Assembly (NCBI RefSeq): GCF_028368995.1
Contig: NZ_JAQNDL010000003.1
Span: 96,001 to 160,000, forward strand
Reading direction: 5' to 3'
DNA: 64,000 nt
Source of the DNA: Nannocystis bainbridge
GTDB lineage: Bacteria; Myxococcota_A; Polyangia; Nannocystales; Nannocystaceae
In this document: positions 7,509-27,018 of the stretch, piece by piece
Layout: each line of letters begins with the position of its first letter
How positions within the stretch are numbered: the first letter of the stretch is position 1
The notes under the pieces: generated by a model
What the model was told of the DNA's origin: nothing
What the model saw: only the letters and a program-made list of their open reading frames with translations
Databases searched by the model: none
Program-made: the position numbers and the translations under genes

Positions 7509-8270
7509 GTGACGATCGAGGCGACCTCCTCCGAGCGAAGTGTCGGGCCCGATAAACGCCCGCTGCAACGACCGGAGCACCTCGTCGTGTTCGCCCGCGT
7601 GTACGGCCACCTGCGCTACTTCTATCCGGCCGAGGCGAGTACGTACGAGTGGTCGGTGCTCGCGGCCGACGGAGTCGAGGTGGCCGAGCGCGCCGAGGAC
7701 ATGGACGCGCTCGCCCGCGACCTCGAGCGATGGGCCGCGCGCATCGGTCCGGACATCCAAATCGCCGGGTCAGTCCCCGCCGCGGGAGCGCCCGATCCCG
7801 CCGGCCCGGGCTGGCGTCACACCGGCGTCTCCGGCCAGCGCACGATCTATCGCAGCGAGTTCGTCGCAGCCGACCATTCGGCTCCCGATGTCGTTGTCGC
7901 CGACGTTGGCAGCGGTCTCCACATTCGCTACCCGCGCGCATTCACCGGGCAGACGGCCCCGCTCGCCCTCGCCGAGCCGCCAGCGCTCGATGCCTGCGCC
8001 GAGCGTGACCGCCCGCGCAGCAATCGGCTCGCAGTGACGATCATGATGTGGAGCCTCCTCGAGCACTTCTACCCGTACCACGAGCTCATGCTCACCGACT
8101 GGCCCGGAGCGCTGGGCGTCGCTTTGCCCGCGGCGGCGACGGTCGGGACGCCGAGCGAGTTGATTCATGGGCTGCGGCGGTTGCTGGCTGAGCTGCGCGA
8201 CAATCATGTCCGCCTGTGGTACGGCCCCGAGCCGCGCTGCCGGCTGGGCATGGCGACGGCGACGGTCCCG
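7509..8270 (+). pseudogene. S41-family peptidase N-terminal fragment
   Basis: FARVYGHLRYFYP and RLAVTIMMWSLLEHFYPY...LRRLLAELRDNH match the helical N-terminal modules of S41 proteases. No catalytic domain; the frame degenerates after ~8270. Confidence 0.6.
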
Positions 8271-8284
8271 GGCAGCAGAGCCTT

Positions 8285-8510
8285 GCCGCCAGACCCGTCT
8301 CCGCGTCGCGTAGATGTTCGCCATCCGCCGGCGCGAGCTGCAGGGCCCTGCCTCCGACGCGCCGCTCGAACGCCCGCAGCATTCGTCCTCCGCCCGACCA
8401 CAGCACCACCGGCACCTCCCCGAGCTCGTCGAGGATCACCGGTTCGGATGCCAGCCGGCTCGCCTCGTACGCCCTCGCCTTCGATCCCCGCCACGAACGC
8501 GCATGGACGT
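8285..8510 (-). pseudogene. DUF3179-like protein C-terminal fragment
   Basis: GSKARAY...VILDELGEVPVVLW...RAFERRVGGRALQL...LRDAETG resembles DUF3179 proteins. No start codon or N-terminus. Confidence 0.5.
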
Positions 8511-8573
8511 CCACCGGGGCCGTACTGCGAACCATGAAGCGAAGTTCGCTCCTCGCGCCTTGGCCGCCGACCG

Positions 8574-9455
8574 TCAGTCGATCATTTGCGGCATGCCGAG
8601 CGCCGTGAGTAGACCTCGCTGAACCTCCGAGGCAGCGTGGTTGAGGGCCTCCGTGCCCGCACCTCCTCCACTGGGATCGACGACGACGCGGAGCGGCCGC
8701 GTCCCAGCGGGGGCTTCCACGAGTGCCACCACGGCCCGCGCCACCTCCTCGGGGTCCGAAGCTCCTGGACCGTCGTGCATGGCCGTAATCATCTCTTGCA
8801 GCTTCGAGGCCGCGGCCTCCAAGCCGTAGCCATTCGCTCTTTCGGCATCGGCGCCCGTCACCGTCGAAGTGAGGATTCCGGTCTTGAAGACTCCCGGCTG
8901 GAGGATCGACACCTCGACGCCCGTTGGCTTGAGCTCGTACCGATAGCTCTCGGCCATTGCTTCGAGAGCCCACTTGGACCCGCAATAGATGCCATTGAAA
9001 GGCGCAGTCAGGCGGCCCATCGTGCTGGAGATGTGAATGAGCAGCCCCGCCCGACGCTTGCGGAGCGCCGGCAAGACGGCGCGGTTCACACGATGTGCGC
9101 CGACCACGTTCGTGTCGAGCTCCGCGAGGACTTGCTCTGAGGTGAAGGTTTCGTTGATTCCGCCGACCGCGTAGCCCGCGTTGTTTACGATGACATCGAG
9201 GTGCCCGGCGGCACGTTCGGCGGCCGCTACAGCCGTGGACACGGAACGGTCATCAGTGACGTCCAGCTCGACGACGTGAAGCGTGAGCCGCTCGGCTTCC
9301 GCGATGGCTCGAAGCTCGGCGGCCGCGCGCTCGTTCTTCGTGTTGGGCGCCCGCATCGTCGCGAACACGCGGTGGCCGCGGCGGGCGAGGGCGAGGCTGA
9401 TGAGGCGACCGAGGCCGCTATTGCTGCCAGTGACCAGTACGTTGCTGTTGCTCAT
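8574..9455 (-). CDS. Short-chain dehydrogenase/reductase (SDR)
   Basis: TGSNSGLG, NNAG and YCGSK catalytic motif. Confidence 0.93.
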   Translation of the reverse strand: MSNSNVLVTGSNSGLGRLISLALARRGHRVFATMRAPNTKNERAAAELRAIAEAERLTLHVVELDVTDDRSVSTAVAAAERAAGHLDVIVNNAGYAVGGINETFTSEQVLAELDTNVVGAHRVNRAVLPALRKRRAGLLIHISSTMGRLTAPFNGIYCGSKWALEAMAESYRYELKPTGVEVSILQPGVFKTGILTSTVTGADAERANGYGLEAAASKLQEMITAMHDGPGASDPEEVARAVVALVEAPAGTRPLRVVVDPSGGGAGTEALNHAASEVQRGLLTALGMPQMID

Positions 9456-9545
9456 GTCCCGAGCGTGACGCCGAGCCGGTCGTGCCACAAGAGACGAATC
9501 CGCATCTCAGTAGTGCATCCAAGCACGAAACGGACGCTAGCGTCG

Positions 9546-10487
9546 TTACATCGGTTTCTGCCTCGCCGCTCGGCGAGTGCCGATGACGTCGAAGAGGTCG
9601 GCGTGCGTCGAGACGAACTCTTTCATGAGGGTGATGAACGCACGGGTCTTCGGCGTCTTTGCGCGCGCGCTCGGCGCCATGATGGAGAGGCTCACCGGAG
9701 GCGGCCGGTAACCGCCAGGTTCGAGAACGACCAGTCCTTCTCTCGCCGCGACGGAGCGGGGAAGAATCGAGATTCCGGCTCCGGAGATCACACATTGAGT
9801 CGTCAGCGGTGAGGAGTTGGTGACGATGCGCGGAGCCACTTCGAGTCGCTCCTGGTGGCCGGCGCGACTCACGAAGGTCCACGTCGTTCGCTTCTTCACG
9901 GCGTGCCCAACGAGCGAATGGCTCGCTAGATCGCCCAGCCGCTCGAGACGTGGAGCCCGCTCGAGGTAGGCACGCGAAGCGGCAAGCACCGGCACGATGC
10001 TCGCGAGCGGAGAGATCCCGAGCGACGTTGCCGAGCTGGAGCCGATCCGGATGGTCGCGTCGTACCCCTCCGCGACGAGGTCGACGAGGGCGTCCGTGGC
10101 GACGACCTCGACGCGCATGTCGGGGTAGCGGCGGACGAACTCCGACAGGGCGATGCCGAGGAAGGTATCGATGACGGGCGTGGGGACGCTGATGCGGAGC
10201 GTTCCTCGGGGTGCATCGAGGTGGTCGGACACGACGTGCTCGGCCTGCAGCGCGATCGAGCGAATCGTCGCGCCGAGACGAGCGAGCTGCTCTCCAATCT
10301 CGGTCGGTCGGAGGGATCGCGTCGTGCGCTCGAAGAGCCGCGCCCCAATTTGTCGTTCGAGCCTCGCCACGCGCCGTGACACCGTGGACGGCGGCAGCCC
10401 AAGGTCCGTCGCCGCACGGGCGAAGCTACCTCGCTCGAGAACACGGGCGACGAGCAAGAGGTCGGAAGGATCGGCGGCGAGGCTCAT
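9546..10487 (-). CDS. LysR-family transcriptional regulator (CrgA/DmlR-like)
   Basis: GSFARAATDLGLPPSTVSRRVARLE...LFERTTRSLRPT HTH and VDLVAEGYDATIR substrate-binding domain. Confidence 0.93.
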   Translation of the reverse strand: MSLAADPSDLLLVARVLERGSFARAATDLGLPPSTVSRRVARLERQIGARLFERTTRSLRPTEIGEQLARLGATIRSIALQAEHVVSDHLDAPRGTLRISVPTPVIDTFLGIALSEFVRRYPDMRVEVVATDALVDLVAEGYDATIRIGSSSATSLGISPLASIVPVLAASRAYLERAPRLERLGDLASHSLVGHAVKKRTTWTFVSRAGHQERLEVAPRIVTNSSPLTTQCVISGAGISILPRSVAAREGLVVLEPGGYRPPPVSLSIMAPSARAKTPKTRAFITLMKEFVSTHADLFDVIGTRRAARQKPM

Positions 10488-19776: not shown

Positions 19777-20967
19777 CTACGCATCGCACGCCGAAGCCCG
19801 CGACGCGGCGAGCGCCAGGAGAGCTCCGACGAGCGCGACGGCGGCCCCCGCGCCGCCGATTGCCTCGATGCCGCCGAGGCCGATCGCCGCGCCCCCGATG
19901 CTAGCGCCGAGCCCCTGGCCGAAGAACACCATCGAGCCGTTGAGCGCGAGCACAACGGGGCGGGCCTCGGGCCGGGTTACCGCAAGCAGCCGGGCCTGGA
20001 CGATCGGGGTGCGCGTGAACAGGGCCGACGCGCCGAGCACCATGCCGACGGCCAGCATCACGAGTACCGGCGCGCTGGCGATCGCGCTGGCGACGAGGCC
20101 CGGACCGCTCATCAGGGCCGAATACGACGCGAGCGAGAACGCCGAGACGAGGAAGCTGAGGACCAACACGCGCTGTGCGCCGGGCCGGTCGGCACTGCGC
20201 CCGCCGACGACGATGCCGACGATACTGCCGAGGCCGATCAGCATCTGCATCACGCCGATGCCCGAGCCCGTGAGGCCGGTGATCGCGGTGACGACCGGCC
20301 CGACATAGGCGATCACCGTGAAGGTGGAAGCAAAGCCGACGAGGGTCAGCAGGAGGTGGGCATGGACGGGACGCTCACGCACGATCGACAGGGCGTGGCG
20401 ATCGGTTCGTGTACCCCCGGGCATGGCCGGCAACACGAGGCGGATCGCCAGCGCCGCCGCGATCGCGATCACACCGGCATACACGAAGGTGCCGCGCCAG
20501 CCGGCGAGATCACCGATCGCGCTACCCACGGGGATCCCGAGCACGAACGCGAGGGTCATGCCGCCGAACACGATCGCCATCGCCTGCCCGCGACGCTCGG
20601 GCGGCGCGAGCTCGGCGGCCGCGATCGAGGAGATCGGTCCGACCAGCCCTGCCGTGAGACCGCAGAGGATCCGTATGACGATCAAGCCCCAAAATGTCGG
20701 GCTGACCGCGGCCAGGAGGTTGAGGCCGCCGAGCAATGCGAGCCCTGCGACGATCACCGGGCGCCGACCGAGGTGGGCGACGAGGCCGGCGATCAACGGC
20801 GCAGTGATCGCATACGTGAACGCGAAGGCGGTGGCCAGCTGCCCGGCCGCCGCGACTGGCTGGTCAAGCTCCTCGGCGAGGGCCTCGAGGTGGCCGGCAT
20901 ACACATAGGCCTCGGTACCGGTGGCGAAGCTCGCCAGCGCGAGCACAAAGATGGTGCGGCTCAGCAT
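19777..20967 (-). CDS. MFS transporter (DHA1/PbuE-like efflux)
   Basis: About 12 TM helices, LGRRPV loop, ELAPPERRGQAMA, LGIPVG...GWR. Confidence 0.9.
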   Translation of the reverse strand: MLSRTIFVLALASFATGTEAYVYAGHLEALAEELDQPVAAAGQLATAFAFTYAITAPLIAGLVAHLGRRPVIVAGLALLGGLNLLAAVSPTFWGLIVIRILCGLTAGLVGPISSIAAAELAPPERRGQAMAIVFGGMTLAFVLGIPVGSAIGDLAGWRGTFVYAGVIAIAAALAIRLVLPAMPGGTRTDRHALSIVRERPVHAHLLLTLVGFASTFTVIAYVGPVVTAITGLTGSGIGVMQMLIGLGSIVGIVVGGRSADRPGAQRVLVLSFLVSAFSLASYSALMSGPGLVASAIASAPVLVMLAVGMVLGASALFTRTPIVQARLLAVTRPEARPVVLALNGSMVFFGQGLGASIGGAAIGLGGIEAIGGAGAAVALVGALLALAASRASACDA

Positions 20968-20993
20968 GAATGGTCGCTCTCGCGGGGTCTCGC

Positions 20994-22325
20994 TCAGCGG
21001 GCGAGGCAGGCCATGAAGCGTTGAAACAGTTTGCGATCGCCGCGCAGACGCAGGCGTCCGCGCATCACGGCCCACACCGGACTGTGCTTGCCGCTGGCGA
21101 TCCCGAGCCAGGTCGCGGCGTCCGCCTCGACGACGACGTCCGCCGGGTCATCCTCGTGTTCGACGATCGTCAGCTTGCCCTCGGCCACGCGGATCGTCGC
21201 CACGAACTGCTCCGCCCCGGTGAAACGAAACCGCAGCGTCGCCGCCATATCCTTCGCGCGGCCGCGCTGGAAGATCAGCGGCAGCGCGAGCACGAAGCCA
21301 CGCGCCGAATCCGGGCTCAGCCCGCTGCGGACCCGCCGGAGCCGTTTGTGCGGGAACCGCCGGGCCGCGTGAGCCTCGGCATCCGAGCCCGCGAGCACAT
21401 ACAGCGGCTCCACCTTGTCCTGCAGCGGCCGCACGACCTGGCGCAGGAAACCAGCCTTCGCGTTCAGGTAGGTGCCGAGCACATCTTCGCCGGCGGGGCA
21501 CACGGCCATGCAATAGGCGGCCTTGTAATTGGGCCCGTAGGCCAGGCTCTGCCACATCGACACCGTCTCCTTGTCGCTGACGCGCTCGCGGTAGTCCCTG
21601 CCGTCCTTGCTGTCGGCGACAGTCGCCACCCAGTCGACGAATCCGCCCATGAACTCGCGATAGTTATGAGTATTGCAGGCCGAGAAGTCGAAGTGGCCGT
21701 CCGATTGGATCGCCCCGACCGGACACGCGCTGACGCACAGCTTGCAATCGATGCACGGGTTATAGTCGATCGGCTGGGTCTCGGCGTCCACGGGCGCGTC
21801 GGTCAGGACCGTGCCGAGCAGGATGAAATTTCCGAAGCGCGGGTGGATGAGGTTGCGGTGCAGGCCCATTTGTCCGAGGCCCGCGGCGACGGCGACGACC
21901 TTGTGCGAGACGACCCAGATCCGCGCGGGCCAGCGCGCCATCTCCATCGGGAAGGCGATCGAGGGGTTGACCGCGCGGTGGCCCTTCTCGACGAGCGCGC
22001 GTGCGATCGCCTGCGCGACCTCGTCGGCGTGATCACCGGTGCGATGAAACTCCTGATTGGCGACGCTGCGGGCCGGGCTGCGCACGCTGTCGCGATTCAT
22101 GCGCACGACGAAGGCGACCAGCGTGCGCACGCCCGGTAGCGCCTCCTCGACGAAGGGCCGCTCGGTGGCGACCTCGGGGCGGTCGATGGCGACGAAGCCG
22201 ACATCGTCCGCGCCGGCAGCGAGGGCCACCTCGCGTAGCCACGCGCTGGTGATACCGACGGGGACCGGCGCCGGTCGGCTCCGGATCTGTACGACCGTCG
22301 GGTGCTCTTGAACCTTGATCGCCAT
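20994..22325 (-). CDS. QueG/reductive-dehalogenase-like 4Fe-4S protein with C-terminal SCP2 lipid-binding domain
   Basis: AGADDVGF, SHKVVAVAAGLGQMG...HPRFG, CIDCKLCVSACP, YCMAVCP; C-terminal ADVVVEADAATW...GRLRLRGD (SCP2). Confidence 0.85.
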   Translation of the reverse strand: MAIKVQEHPTVVQIRSRPAPVPVGITSAWLREVALAAGADDVGFVAIDRPEVATERPFVEEALPGVRTLVAFVVRMNRDSVRSPARSVANQEFHRTGDHADEVAQAIARALVEKGHRAVNPSIAFPMEMARWPARIWVVSHKVVAVAAGLGQMGLHRNLIHPRFGNFILLGTVLTDAPVDAETQPIDYNPCIDCKLCVSACPVGAIQSDGHFDFSACNTHNYREFMGGFVDWVATVADSKDGRDYRERVSDKETVSMWQSLAYGPNYKAAYCMAVCPAGEDVLGTYLNAKAGFLRQVVRPLQDKVEPLYVLAGSDAEAHAARRFPHKRLRRVRSGLSPDSARGFVLALPLIFQRGRAKDMAATLRFRFTGAEQFVATIRVAEGKLTIVEHEDDPADVVVEADAATWLGIASGKHSPVWAVMRGRLRLRGDRKLFQRFMACLAR

Positions 22326-22399
22326 GTTCGTCTTTCTCTCAGCCGGAGGCTCCACGCGCGTCAAGTCCACGACGCGAATGGTGGGTAGATGCGTATGAG

Positions 22400-23237: not shown

Positions 23238-23513
23238 GAAGTGCAATTCGAACGCGGCGAGCTCGAGGCGGCGCGCTCGTTGTACGAAGAGTCGCGGTCC
23301 ATCATCGACGAGTTGGTGCGGTCGTTCCCGCAGAAGCTCACCGAGCTCGCGCGGCTCCGCCGGGCGCAGGGCGACCGCACGCTGGCCCTCGACGCAGCGA
23401 ACCGGGCGCGATCGATCCTCGGGGCCCTGCTCGCCAGTCCTCCCTCGCCTCTGCCGGAGTGGGAGGACTGCGCGCGACAGGTGAACGCACTCATCACCGA
23501 GCTCAATGCCTAG
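23238..23513 (+). pseudogene. TPR-protein C-terminal fragment
   Basis: RGELEAARSLYEESRSI...LTELARLRRAQGD helical repeats with no credible N-terminus. Confidence 0.45.
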
Positions 23514-23519
23514 CCGATC

Positions 23520-23800
23520 GAGTCGTGCGACGCGCGCGCGGCCGCGTGCGCGGCGACCCCGCGCATCACCGCGGTCAGCACGGCGAGCGCTGGCGCGGGG
23601 AGCTGATCGCGGACGGTGAGGCGCTGCTGTGGGCGGCGCTGGGTCCTCGCCCGGGCCTGCGGGCGCTGCGGGCGACGATCCACGCGGTGCACGCAGATCG
23701 CCGGCGCTCGGGGGTGACCGACTGGGCGGCGATCCTGACGCTGTACGGCACGCTGCTGCTGCTGCGCGACGACCCGGTGATCCGGGTCAATCGGGCGCGG
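23520..23800 (+). pseudogene. Fragment of ECF sigma factor C-terminal extension (ECF42/DUF6596-type)
   Basis: RW.GELIADG...RPG...ATIHAVHA...TDWAAILTLY...DPVIRVNRA. Confidence 0.65.
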
Positions 23801-23904
23801 GCGAATTCGGGCCTGCACGGTGACCAGCTCCAGGCCGACATCAAGCTCCTGCTCGATCGCACGCGCCGGTGCCTGTGGGGCGGCCTTGTCGTCGCCGAGC
23901 GCTC

Positions 23905-24286
23905 GGGCGTCGTCGCGGAGCGTGTCATGGTCATTCAGGTCTTCGTAGCCGCACAGAAGGCCCAGCACACGCTGCGCCAGCAGCTCCTCGACGGTGTGCT
24001 CGATGCGGCTCGGGTCGCGGTGGTCCCGGAAGCAGGACGCGAACCTTCGAAACACACCTGAGCTCTTGGTCAGCTCGCGCAGCAGCAGCAAACCGCCGTC
24101 CGAGCTGACCCGTCCGGCGTCGAACGCAGCCTCGACCCGGCGGCGTCCGGCAGGTTGAAAATCGAACTCGGCGCGGATACACCTTGTCGTGTTCCGGCCG
24201 TACCCCTGGGTGGCCAGCAATCGTTTCACACCCGCTCAAACTCGGGAAGTACGGCCGGAATTCCTTACCGTGGTGAGAAATCCGGG
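23905..24286 (-). mobile_element. Truncated IS1380-family element (left end and transposase N-terminus)
   Basis: EAAFDAGRVSSDGGLLLLRE...FRDHRDPSRIEHTVEELLAQRVLGLLCGYEDLNDHDTLR. Terminus CCCGGATTTCTCAC on the minus strand abuts CTAG at 24287-24290. Confidence 0.85.
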
Positions 24287-26686
24287 CTAGCGCCGGGGCC
24301 CGAGGTTCGTGCGGACCAGCAATTGCGAGAAACTCTCGAGGAACTCCTGCTTCGAGATGTTGTTGTCGCGGCTGATGTCGCTCGAGCGCAGGAACTCGTG
24401 GATCTCCTCGTCGGCGTAGCCCATCGCCCGGAACTTCGCCTCGACCTCGGCGCGGTCGAGCTGGCCGTCATTGTTGGCGTCGATCTCCTCGAACACCTGG
24501 GCCATCGAGTCGCGGAAAAGCGCCCGCGAGATGCCGCGGCGGAACTCGCGTTCGAGCATGTCGAGGAAGGTGTCGTCGCCGAAGTCGGTCAGCCACGGGT
24601 TCATCACCGTCGAGCGCAGGACCGTGACGGCGTGCCCCGGGCCCTCGACGCCGAGGCGGCGCTTGTAGCTGTCCATGAACTGCGCGCCGTAGTGCGCGTC
24701 CTCGAAGTCGGTGGTGGTCACCAGCAGCGGGTGGCCGGACGGGTCCTCGCCCGGGCGCAGGCTCAGGACCTCGTAGACGGCCTTGTTCAGGCGGTTCGCC
24801 TGGGCCAGGCTCGTATTCATGCGGCCGTCCGGGTGCTTGAAGTTGAAGGCGTAGGTGAGGATGTTGAGGTCGGGCCCGATCTCGGCGAACAGCGCCATCG
24901 CCTCCTCGTCGGCGAGCAGCTCCTCGGGGTCGCGGCCGTCGATCCGCCAGCGGATGAACTCGGTCTGCGCGGCGACGTCGCCGCCGGCGATCTCGGCCGG
25001 CAGGCGCGGCACGGGGACGACGACGAAGTTGTCCTCGGGGCGGGCCATGCAGAGCAGGCGGGCATAGACCCGCCGGCAGTTGAAAAGCGCCTTGCGGTGG
25101 ATGCTGCCGTAGCCGCTGCGGCTCGGGCGGATCACCTTGTGCGCCAAGAACACCGCGGCGACCGCCGCCCCGGGCTTCGAGCCCTCGACGCCGTAGATGC
25201 CGACCGAAGGCTCGTCTTGCGCGTGCAGGATGTAGGGCGCTTTGAAGGTGACCAGGTCGCGCATCGCCGCGTTGCGGTAGCAGAGGGCCCCGGCCGGGTA
25301 AGGGATGTAACCCGACTTGTGAGGGTCGACGGTGACGGAGTCGGCCTGCTGCAGCACGGCGTACTGGGTCTCGGTGTAGCGGCTGAAGCCGACCTCGGCG
25401 CGCGGCGAGGCGGGCGCGGGCTGCTTGCCGGCCGGGGCGTCGTCGTCGCGGAGGATGCTGACGTGATAGCCGCCCCACGCGGCGTCGGCGTGCACGGTGA
25501 ACTCGAGGCCCCTCTCGCGCAGTTGGTCGCGCAGCGCGAGGATCTCGCGCAGCGGATCGACGGCGCTCTCCTCGGTGCTGCCGATCACGCCGACGACCGT
25601 GTACACCGGCCGGCGCTCCGCCAGGCAGCTCAGCAAGATCCGCTCGAGATCGGGGATGCTCATGCGCGCGTTCTCGTCGAGCGGGACGTCGAGCACGTTG
25701 GCGGCGCCGATCCCGAGGATCGCGGCCGCCTTGGGGAACGAGTAGTGCTTGGTGGCCGGGACCAGGATCACCGGCGGGCTGCGCAGCTCGCCGACGTAGC
25801 GGCTGAAGAACGCGTGCATGCCCAGGCTCTGCGGCGAGACCTTCGCCAGCGCCGCAGTGATGACGTCGGGCGAGATCCCGAACTCCGCGGTGATGCGCGC
25901 CGGCAGGGCCAGGATGTCGTCGCCCTGCAGGTTGCACAGCGACCACGCGTCGAGCTCGCGCAGCAGCGCCGAAGCGCCGCCCGGCCCCCGCACGCGCAGC
26001 TCGCTCGCGGCGGCCAGCGACGGGTCCTCTCGCAGCGCCGCCTGCATGGCGACCGGGTAGAGCTTGAGGTTGCGCGCCGACCAGATCGCCTCGATGTTGG
26101 CGACGGTGCCGCCGCTGGTGATGTGGCCCCACGGGCGCACCGCGCCGGCCTGGCACGCGGCCTTGTCCGGCAGCGGGTAGCCGATCATGCGGCACAGATC
26201 GTCGCCGACCAGCAGCTCGAGGATCGTCGTCGCCGTCGAGCCCTCGAAGGCGACGTTGTTGGGGTTGTAGAGCATCGCCGCGAAGTAACCGAGGACCGCC
26301 GGCATCGCGGTGTCCCAGTTCATGTGCCCCTGGTAGCGGGTGCTGAAGAACGGCATCGATTTCTTCAAGAAGCCGAGCAGCGAGCGGTAGCTGTCGGTGA
26401 GGCTGCCCATCGCCTGCACGTATTCGGGCTGGCGCTTGACCGCCTCGGTGACGAGGGTCGGATCGCCGGGGTGGAAGTTGCGGCGCCAGAACGCCTGATC
26501 GCGGATCGCCTCGACGATCAGCCGCTCGAACTCCTCCGCGTTCTCCGCCTTGGAGCCCAGGAACCACGCCTCGGGCGACGAGGTACCCGGGCCTTCGAGG
26601 TAGGGGATCTCCACGTGTTGAAGGAATTGATCGACGGCGCCCGCAGAGACCTGGGGTCCCCGCTTTCGATTGGGTCGTTGGGTCAT
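24287..26686 (-). CDS. Group II PLP-dependent decarboxylase (tyrosine/aromatic amino-acid decarboxylase-like) with two C-terminal EF-hands
   Basis: WFLGSKAEN, RYQGHM, YNPNNV, WGHITSGGTVAN, HYSFPKAA, HADAAWGGY, DPHKSGY (PLP lysine); DANNDGQLDRAE and DISRDNNISKQE. Confidence 0.9.
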   Translation of the reverse strand: MTQRPNRKRGPQVSAGAVDQFLQHVEIPYLEGPGTSSPEAWFLGSKAENAEEFERLIVEAIRDQAFWRRNFHPGDPTLVTEAVKRQPEYVQAMGSLTDSYRSLLGFLKKSMPFFSTRYQGHMNWDTAMPAVLGYFAAMLYNPNNVAFEGSTATTILELLVGDDLCRMIGYPLPDKAACQAGAVRPWGHITSGGTVANIEAIWSARNLKLYPVAMQAALREDPSLAAASELRVRGPGGASALLRELDAWSLCNLQGDDILALPARITAEFGISPDVITAALAKVSPQSLGMHAFFSRYVGELRSPPVILVPATKHYSFPKAAAILGIGAANVLDVPLDENARMSIPDLERILLSCLAERRPVYTVVGVIGSTEESAVDPLREILALRDQLRERGLEFTVHADAAWGGYHVSILRDDDAPAGKQPAPASPRAEVGFSRYTETQYAVLQQADSVTVDPHKSGYIPYPAGALCYRNAAMRDLVTFKAPYILHAQDEPSVGIYGVEGSKPGAAVAAVFLAHKVIRPSRSGYGSIHRKALFNCRRVYARLLCMARPEDNFVVVPVPRLPAEIAGGDVAAQTEFIRWRIDGRDPEELLADEEAMALFAEIGPDLNILTYAFNFKHPDGRMNTSLAQANRLNKAVYEVLSLRPGEDPSGHPLLVTTTDFEDAHYGAQFMDSYKRRLGVEGPGHAVTVLRSTVMNPWLTDFGDDTFLDMLEREFRRGISRALFRDSMAQVFEEIDANNDGQLDRAEVEAKFRAMGYADEEIHEFLRSSDISRDNNISKQEFLESFSQLLVRTNLGPRR

Positions 26687-27018
26687 TGGAATCGCTCTCC
26701 TGGCAGGTCCGAAAATGAGGTGGGCGGAGCTTCGCACAATCGCCGCGGGGCCGGGACGGCGCGTCGCTGCGGGCGGTGATGCGCGCGCGCGAGCCCGGGG
26801 CCGGAGGCGCCCAATGGCCGGAGAGTCACCAGCGAGGCCCTGCGGTCCTCGCCGACGCGAATGCGCAGTTTCGCAGCGCTCGCCGTCGGGTCGGCCCGGC
26901 CCGCGATCGACGCGGATCTCAGCCGCGGCACGGCCGGGGACGCGCCCTTCGAGCGCACCTTTTTAAAAAGGCGGGGCAAGCTCGCGAAATCTTCATGGAC
27001 AGCCCCTCGCGCGCCGGC

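Follow-up and report, generated by a model that had tools for sequence, protein, structure and literature searches.

A gene lying in a 64,000-nucleotide stretch of DNA from the soil myxobacterium Nannocystis bainbridge (contig NZ_JAQNDL010000003.1 of assembly GCF_028368995.1, positions 96,001 to 160,000; the whole stretch is called the window, and all nucleotide coordinates refer to it) was found to encode a protein, here termed P0001, in which a pyridoxal phosphate (PLP)-dependent decarboxylase core is followed by a C-terminal pair of EF hands. P0001 is read as a cytoplasmic, calcium-responsive aromatic L-amino-acid decarboxylase of the non-canonical family, with the EF-hand pair replacing the barrel domain of a calcium-activated fungal relative; a probability of roughly 0.55 was assigned to this reading. 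The substrate class, the binding of calcium and, above all, the coupling of calcium to catalysis are what we infer from the observations below.

Domain architecture of P0001

The first-pass annotation of the window had described a complete group II decarboxylase followed by an EF-hand pair whose two 12-residue loops stood in helix-loop-helix spacing, and both parts of that description were borne out (Table 1). The Pfam profile Pyridoxal_deC scored 56.8 bits against a cut-off of 27, which places P0001 among the group II PLP decarboxylases; tyr_de_CO2_C (37.5 bits against 27.2) and EF-hand_7 also exceeded their cut-offs. The nearest homologue of solved structure was 6ebn_A, the enzyme PcncAAAD of Psilocybe cubensis, which was matched in one stretch (residues 39-716 of P0001 against 24-702; E 1.1e-157). 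The same structure ranked first when the AlphaFold2 model of P0001 was searched with Foldseek (E 1.4e-42, 40% identity), and both the sequence matches and Foldseek then gave the tyrosine decarboxylases of Enterococcus and Lactobacillus, at about 28% identity. Two NCBIfam models scored below their cut-offs: TIGR03811 (enterococcal-type tyrosine decarboxylase) reached 339.8 bits against an equivalog cut-off of 905.3, and TIGR01788 (glutamate decarboxylase) 25.3 bits against 380.4. Residues H188, D401 and K457 were invariant in 75 of 75 aligned family sequences. By the roles described for the family, K457 is the lysine of the Schiff base, and the PLP ring is held by H188 and D401. The characterised near relatives of the core all act on aromatic amino acids, according to the report on the fungal enzyme (PMC13062060), and the core of P0001 is very probably an aromatic amino-acid decarboxylase as well.

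The EF-hand pair was recognized by the two-hand profile, while the single-hand Pfam models fell just short of their cut-offs (EF-hand_1: 25.0 bits against 25.4). The nearest sequence matches of the tail in the Protein Data Bank (PDB) were the calmodulin-like domains of calcium-dependent kinases, troponin C and CaBP1. Both 12-residue loops, which lie 34 residues apart, carry oxygen ligands at positions 1, 3, 5, 9 and 12, and position 8 is hydrophobic in each. In the AlphaFold2 model, the tail forms helix-strand-helix twice (helix 707-735, strand 742-744, helix 745-754; helix 759-769, strand 776-778, helix 779-795), with a per-residue confidence (pLDDT) of about 76-87 across residues 711-790.

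Conservation in the tail was assessed on the 114 distinct C-terminal tails found in 137 EF-bearing sequences. In loop 1, position 1 was Asp in 114/114, position 3 Asn in 112/114, position 5 Asp in 110/114, position 6 Gly in 110/114 and position 12 Glu in 114/114. The corresponding counts for loop 2 were 110/114 (Asp at position 1), 113/114 (Asp, Asn or Ser at position 3), 114/114 (Asp, Ser or Asn at position 5) and 114/114 (Glu at position 12). Residues F732 and F782 were also kept in every tail. Non-ligand positions of the loops were free to vary, and this combination with near-invariant ligands points to purifying selection for calcium binding; in all likelihood, the EF-hand pair of P0001 binds calcium.

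Table 1. Positions of the fusion gene, of its parts and of its two immediate neighbours in the window.
Feature	Position	Strand	Remarks
Decarboxylase-EF-hand fusion gene (P0001)	24287..26686	-	799 codons; stop at 24287..24289
AGGAGA Shine-Dalgarno-like box	26696..26701	-	9 bases 5' of the ATG; read from the sequence
Catalytic core, residues 39-716	24539..26572	-	Homologous to residues 24-702 of the Psilocybe enzyme, its N-terminal domain
Residues 141-149, NPNNVAFEG	26240..26266	-	Counterpart of the fungal rim helix (Val131-Ala135); alignment to 6ebn
Lys457, PLP Schiff-base lysine	25316..25318	-	D-P-H-K motif; aligns with fungal Lys443; 75/75 invariant
Tyr485	25232..25234	-	Counterpart of fungal catalytic-loop Tyr471; alignment to 6ebn
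Residues 641-657	24716..24766	-	Counterpart of the fungal lid loop (Phe631-Leu647); alignment to 6ebn
Long predicted helix, residues 707-735	24482..24568	-	Last helix of the core, continued as the entering helix of EF hand 1
EF-hand pair, residues 726-786	24329..24511	-	Pfam EF-hand_7, 35.5 bits against a cut-off of 30
EF loop 1, residues 736-747	24446..24481	-	D, N, D, G, L, D, E at positions 1, 3, 5, 6, 8, 9, 12
EF loop 2, residues 770-781	24344..24379	-	D, S, D, N, I, S, E at positions 1, 3, 5, 6, 8, 9, 12
DDE_Tnp_1_4 transposase fragment	23510..24229	-	First 85 of 435 profile positions; directly downstream of the decarboxylase
MerR-TetR fusion regulator, 297 aa	27019..27912	-	Upstream of the decarboxylase; both DNA-binding domain types in one protein

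Comparison with the fungal enzyme, proposed mechanism and alternatives

PcncAAAD is the enzyme with which the non-canonical family was first described; the following description is taken from a 2026 report (PMC13062060). PcncAAAD forms homodimers and uses Phe, Tyr, Trp and kynurenine as substrates, and it has a latent oxidative deamination activity on kynurenines. Its C-terminal domain (Met718-Lys1013) consists of two beta barrels, and the enzyme is inactive when this domain is absent. Calcium raises kcat about 7-fold, acting chiefly at a site A that is composed of the backbone of Gln629, Ser632 and Glu638 from the core and Asp971 from the appendage. By way of this site, a lid loop (Phe631-Leu647) is kept in place above a rim helix (Val131-Ala135) lining the aromatic pocket, and Tyr471 is the tyrosine of the catalytic loop. 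A second calcium site, site B, plays a stabilising role. In the same report, EF hands figure solely as a textbook contrast.

The first-pass annotation had cited the Psilocybe enzyme as a parallel, and the relationship proved closer than it had supposed: a homologue, not a mere analogue. The catalytic domains are homologous over about 680 residues and share the PLP lysine, the catalytic-loop Tyr, the rim helix, the lid loop and the core-side ligands of site A. The rim helix of P0001 matches that of PcncAAAD exactly over N-P-N-N-V-A-F-E; among the EF-bearing rows of the alignment, V145 and A146 were kept in 63/64 and F147 and E148 in 64/64. In the lid loop, S642 and E647 align with the site A ligands Ser632 and Glu638, and the EF-bearing rows retained S642 in 63/64, G646 in 64/64 and Glu or Asp at position 647 in 60/64. 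Position 485 was Tyr in 53 of the 64 EF-bearing rows and Val in all 11 EF-less rows.

In both proteins, a calcium-module appendage follows the same terminal helix. The appendages themselves are different: the fungal one comprises about 296 residues in a double beta barrel with its own site B, whereas P0001 has a 61-residue EF-hand pair that bears no sequence relation to it. P0001 ends at residue 799 and thus holds no domain of the fungal type, with neither the counterpart of Asp971 nor any of site B. Fungal residue 702 aligns with residue 716 of P0001, so the fungal junction (717/718) would fall near residue 732, and EF loop 1 begins four residues further on. Judged from this alignment, homologous cores carry two unrelated calcium-binding modules at roughly the same junction. 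The fungal proteins form a clade of their own (support 100 in both trees described below), with representatives from Obba, Paramarasmius, Rhizoctonia and Dactylellina. Calcium activation has been demonstrated for PcncAAAD, whereas for P0001 it would follow by analogy.

In the mechanism proposed for P0001, the core would decarboxylate an aromatic amino acid, with Phe, Tyr and Trp as the likeliest substrates, and the product would be the amine. The two EF hands would bind calcium and, being tied to the core through one continuous helix, could pass a calcium-driven change to the C-terminal small domain and to the lid loop as well as the rim helix, which cover the active site; the calcium-bound state would be the one of higher activity or stability. 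The coupling step is drawn from the fungal analogy and from the shared junction, and on these grounds it seems probable that calcium binding alters activity or stability via the terminal helix, the small domain and the lid. A broader proposal is put forward tentatively and is less likely than not. Fungi may have gained a beta-barrel domain, and bacteria an EF-hand pair, as unrelated calcium modules added independently at the same point of the core, both controlling the same lid; in filamentous cyanobacteria and social myxobacteria, transients of cytoplasmic calcium might then be tied directly to aromatic-amine release, with tyramine, phenethylamine or tryptamine serving as signal or precursor.

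Several points weigh against a calcium-gated aromatic decarboxylase. A canonical loop sequence cannot separate a regulatory from a structural EF hand, and calcium binding and gating are both things that we infer. The substrate is taken solely from relatives that are about 40% identical. The catalytic-loop Tyr is replaced in 11 of the 64 EF-bearing rows (by Val in 8, Cys in 2 and Ile in 1), and the chemistry may thus vary inside the clade. The acidic residue of the lid loop is also kept in the EF-less relatives (11/11), and the lid loop as a whole hardly differs between the two groups; this residue is therefore not specific to the EF-bearing form and may have a role unrelated to calcium. Finally, the monomer model has pLDDT values below 50 in segments of the dimer interface and the active site. 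A docking of the EF-hand pair (723-799) on the core (30-722) with two calcium ions gave a score of 0.00 against a mark of 0.32; it was run without controls and counts neither way.

Four other explanations were weighed. The one that survives best, and that is nonetheless unlikely, regards the EF-hand pair as an always-filled structural calcium site that aids the folding or stability of the enzyme or its dimer, the enzyme being constitutively active. Many bacterial EF-hand-like sites are structural, and the conserved ligands of the tails would suit such a site as well as they suit a sensor. Site B of the fungal enzyme plays just such a stabilising role (PMC13062060). Set against this are relatives of 732-747 residues, 58-64% identical to P0001, which apparently work without the appendage, so that the core does not obviously need a stabiliser. 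The N-terminus of P0001 is moreover devoid of a signal peptide, and the protein appears to be cytoplasmic. Free calcium in the bacterial cytoplasm is sub-micromolar; only a site of very high affinity would therefore stay filled all the time.

It is also doubtful, to a somewhat greater degree, that the enzyme is something other than an aromatic amine synthase, i.e. that it uses another substrate or is an aldehyde synthase coupling decarboxylation to oxidative deamination. Identity to any characterised enzyme is only about 40%, the TIGR03811 score lies far under its cut-off, and the catalytic-loop Tyr is missing both from the EF-bearing rows noted above and from every EF-less row; the latent deamination activity of the fungal relative on kynurenines (PMC13062060) points the same way. 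P0001 itself, however, keeps Tyr485 along with V145 and A146 of the rim helix, and the two nearest characterised families both use aromatic amino acids.

That the EF-hand pair works as a module for calcium-dependent docking to a partner protein or the membrane, exerting no intramolecular control of catalysis, is improbable. The nearest matches of the tail are target-binding EF domains (those of the calcium-dependent kinases, CaBP1 and troponin C), and the invariant F732 and F782 could make a binding cleft. However, the pair is rigidly joined to the core by one predicted helix, and the fungal precedent is one of regulation inside the molecule (PMC13062060). A candidate partner was likewise missing from the genomic surroundings: no neighbouring gene family was conserved across the EF-bearing loci, neighbour clusters 3, 5 and 6 being promiscuous repeat or kinase families. 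A sensor-enzyme that is complete in itself would fit this picture, and the gene looks like a stand-alone unit. Least credible by far is the suggestion that the loops are relics that no longer bind calcium, for which the Asn in place of Gly at position 6 of loop 2 might be cited, since that position varies within the clade (Gly in 62, Asn in 19 and Ser in 14 of the 114 tails) while the ligands, all intact in P0001, are near-invariant.

The calcium-responsive decarboxylase proposed here may be set beside two further systems. The tyrosine decarboxylases of Enterococcus and Lactobacillus (7cwx, 5hsi; TIGR03811) share its subfamily fold, including the tyr_de_CO2_C small domain, and act on aromatic substrates; they differ in their low identity and in having no calcium module in the matched sequences. 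Plant glutamate decarboxylase is a PLP enzyme under calcium control via a C-terminal calmodulin-binding tail. The first-pass annotation had invoked it, and the comparison stands as an analogy; it does not extend to family membership, given the TIGR01788 score. The plant enzyme belongs to another decarboxylase family, and its sensor, calmodulin, is a separate protein, whereas the putative sensor of P0001 is built in.

The architecture had also been put forward as uncharacterised, and a full-text literature search agreed, returning no paper that describes or tests an EF-hand decarboxylase fusion; the sole three-term match (PMC10105728) was unrelated. In sequence databases, the fusion is common under generic names, such as "Osteonectin Ca binding region-containing protein" and "pyridoxal-dependent decarboxylase". 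P0001 can be placed in the calcium-activatable, non-canonical decarboxylase family, with a different and canonical calcium module; the domain combination itself is already in public databases. If the proposal is true, calcium and a biogenic amine would be linked in bacteria through a single protein. Few effectors with a clear enzymatic output are known in bacterial calcium signalling; a built-in EF-hand sensor on a decarboxylase would provide one that can be assayed directly, and the fusion is found in two bacterial groups known for multicellular behaviour. Proteins of the P0001 type would also serve as a natural test of the lid mechanism proposed for the fungal enzyme, with an unrelated calcium module at the same junction, and an EF-hand switch of about 75 residues on an aromatic decarboxylase could be of use for the controllable production of amines.

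Distribution, origin and EF-less relatives

The distribution of the fusion was surveyed in the 120 best matches to P0001. An EF tail was present in 97 of these, all at least 771 residues long, and 93 had EF-hand_7 in the precomputed Pfam column; the remaining 23 (731-747 residues) stop after the terminal helix. The named sources included Nannocystis (94% and 90%), Sorangium, Polyangium, a metagenome-assembled genome of Methyloceanibacter and many filamentous cyanobacteria, among them Microcoleus, Scytonema, Nostoc, Okeania, Sphaerospermopsis and Waterburya. The counterpart in N. exedens was 94% identical at the protein level and 91% at the DNA level.

Trees were calculated on core columns only, the EF columns having been removed by a fill filter. 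Six broken or partial genes (L006, L039, L049, L066, L067 and L069) were left out of the first tree, which was made with FastTree from 99 rows; the EF-bearing rows formed one side of a branch with a support of 96, one row being labelled "other" because the regular expression had missed its EF loops. A quick IQ-TREE run on 47 rows likewise placed the EF-bearing rows on one side of a branch (SH-aLRT 95), with one change. The sister of the EF clade was a small EF-less cyanobacterial group (support 86 and 90), and the myxobacterial rows formed a single clade (99) nested among the cyanobacterial ones. On these trees, the fusion has a single evolutionary origin. When rooted on outgroups resembling tyrosine decarboxylase, the topology suggests one fusion in cyanobacteria and one transfer into myxobacteria; the direction of transfer is only suggested, since the basal forks are open.

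Long tails elsewhere in the family were scanned among the best 150 family representatives at 50% identity, a list from which the EF clade's own representative was absent. Neither an EF-hand Pfam match nor EF loops were present in any of the 50 representatives with C-terminal tails of at least 60 residues. Other appendages were seen on the same core in the family representatives P0211, P0194, P0190, P0263 and P0264; these were an M28 peptidase and a beta/gamma-crystallin domain at the N-terminus, an S10 carboxypeptidase at the C-terminus, and in addition a SMODS-associated NUDIX domain and a response-regulator receiver. The peptidase-core fusions echo a peptidase gene cluster around EF-less relatives, described below. 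One of the broken or partial genes, from Nannocystis sp. RBIL2 (L006, 8001-10399), matched residues 1-799 of P0001 at 91% in tblastn, and its longest open frame was 626 residues; the short frame may be due to a frameshift or an assembly error.

The EF-less bacterial members of the family are about 715-760 residues long and come from Chamaesiphon, Crenothrix, Rhodoblastus, Pyrinomonadaceae, Myxococcus and further sources. In the trees they make up the closest sister groups; their cores are 48-64% identical to that of P0001, from which they differ in ending within or just after the terminal helix. Positions linked to the fusion were sought by comparing 127 EF-bearing with 42 EF-less sequences, a position being counted when it was at least 85% conserved in the EF group and different in the other. 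Ten core positions separated the two forms. Two of these are close to the site of the chemistry, namely Gly192 (Asp in the EF-less form), which lies four residues past H188, and Tyr485 (Val) of the catalytic loop; at both, the EF group agrees with the fungal enzyme. Six of the ten fall in the C-terminal small domain (590-693), which adjoins the EF attachment point; the enrichment is modest and only a hint, because between about a fifth and a quarter of the core lies in this segment.

The two forms also differ in their surroundings. At 12 of 25 EF-less loci, the decarboxylase gene belongs to a conserved cluster that also encodes M28 and M36 peptidases and a ThuA-like protein, while EF-bearing loci are without this cluster. 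The clustered loci (L007, L008, L009, L013, L014, L015, L016, L018, L041, L048, L061 and L062, with the decarboxylase at about 8001-10200 in most) span at least five phyla, and the cluster consists of a HAD-M28 peptidase, an M36 fungalysin-type peptidase, the decarboxylase and a His-rich protein of 317-381 residues without a Pfam family. The Val that replaces the catalytic-loop Tyr in the clustered decarboxylases hints at a different chemistry. The His-rich downstream gene was considered as a free-standing version of the fungal appendage and was ruled out, as it had no sequence match to 6ebn and no likeness to a double beta barrel; its model (pLDDT 81) had weak similarity to ThuA-like and glutamine-amidotransferase-like folds, the best TM values being 0.45-0.57. 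A split form, with a separate EF-hand gene near an EF-less decarboxylase, was sought with a six-frame regular-expression scan of flanks of up to 8 kb, and EF-loop pairs were found in 0 of 25 loci. Both forms occur in Scytonema sp. NIES-4073 (AP018268.1), which carries an EF-bearing gene (L025) and an EF-less one of the cluster type (L048); their presence in one genome suggests that the two enzymes are not redundant.

Gene and genomic neighbourhood

The open reading frame that encloses the fusion gene (24287..26737, minus strand) would encode 816 residues if begun at an upstream GTG, and a start at the ATG at 26686 yields the 799-residue P0001. The ATG was favoured on three grounds: the lengths of the homologues, which span 784-802 residues, the AGGAGA box, and a metagenomic contig about 94% alike, in which the frame is kept within the gene and frame-breaking indels of 1-2 bases occur only upstream of 26686. 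The third-position G+C content of the open reading frame was 0.94, as in other real genes of the window, the overall G+C content of which is about 70%. A scan for promoters and terminators gave no sigma-70-like site and no convincing terminator at the end of the decarboxylase gene. Three RNA-labelled runs from two studies contain small contigs, 92-95% alike and derived from relatives, not from this strain, that span parts of the gene; this is at most a weak hint of expression, because DNA carry-over is possible. The fusion gene is present as a single copy in the source genome.

DNA-level similarity to the Nannocystis relatives comprised the gene itself and at most 230 bases upstream. Neither the transposase fragment nor the MerR-TetR gene was shared with the nearest Nannocystis genomes, and a helix-turn-helix (HTH) fragment of the insertion-sequence (IS) type lies near the copy in N. 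exedens. The spot has been rearranged, since similarity ends at the gene ends, and the neighbours in the window thus say little about function. Further downstream, a 458-residue protein is encoded on the minus strand at 20994..22370; it combines 4Fe-4S dicluster motifs with a C-terminal SCP2 sterol-carrier domain, and its gene overlaps a same-strand open reading frame for a major-facilitator transporter (19777..21075) by 82 bases.

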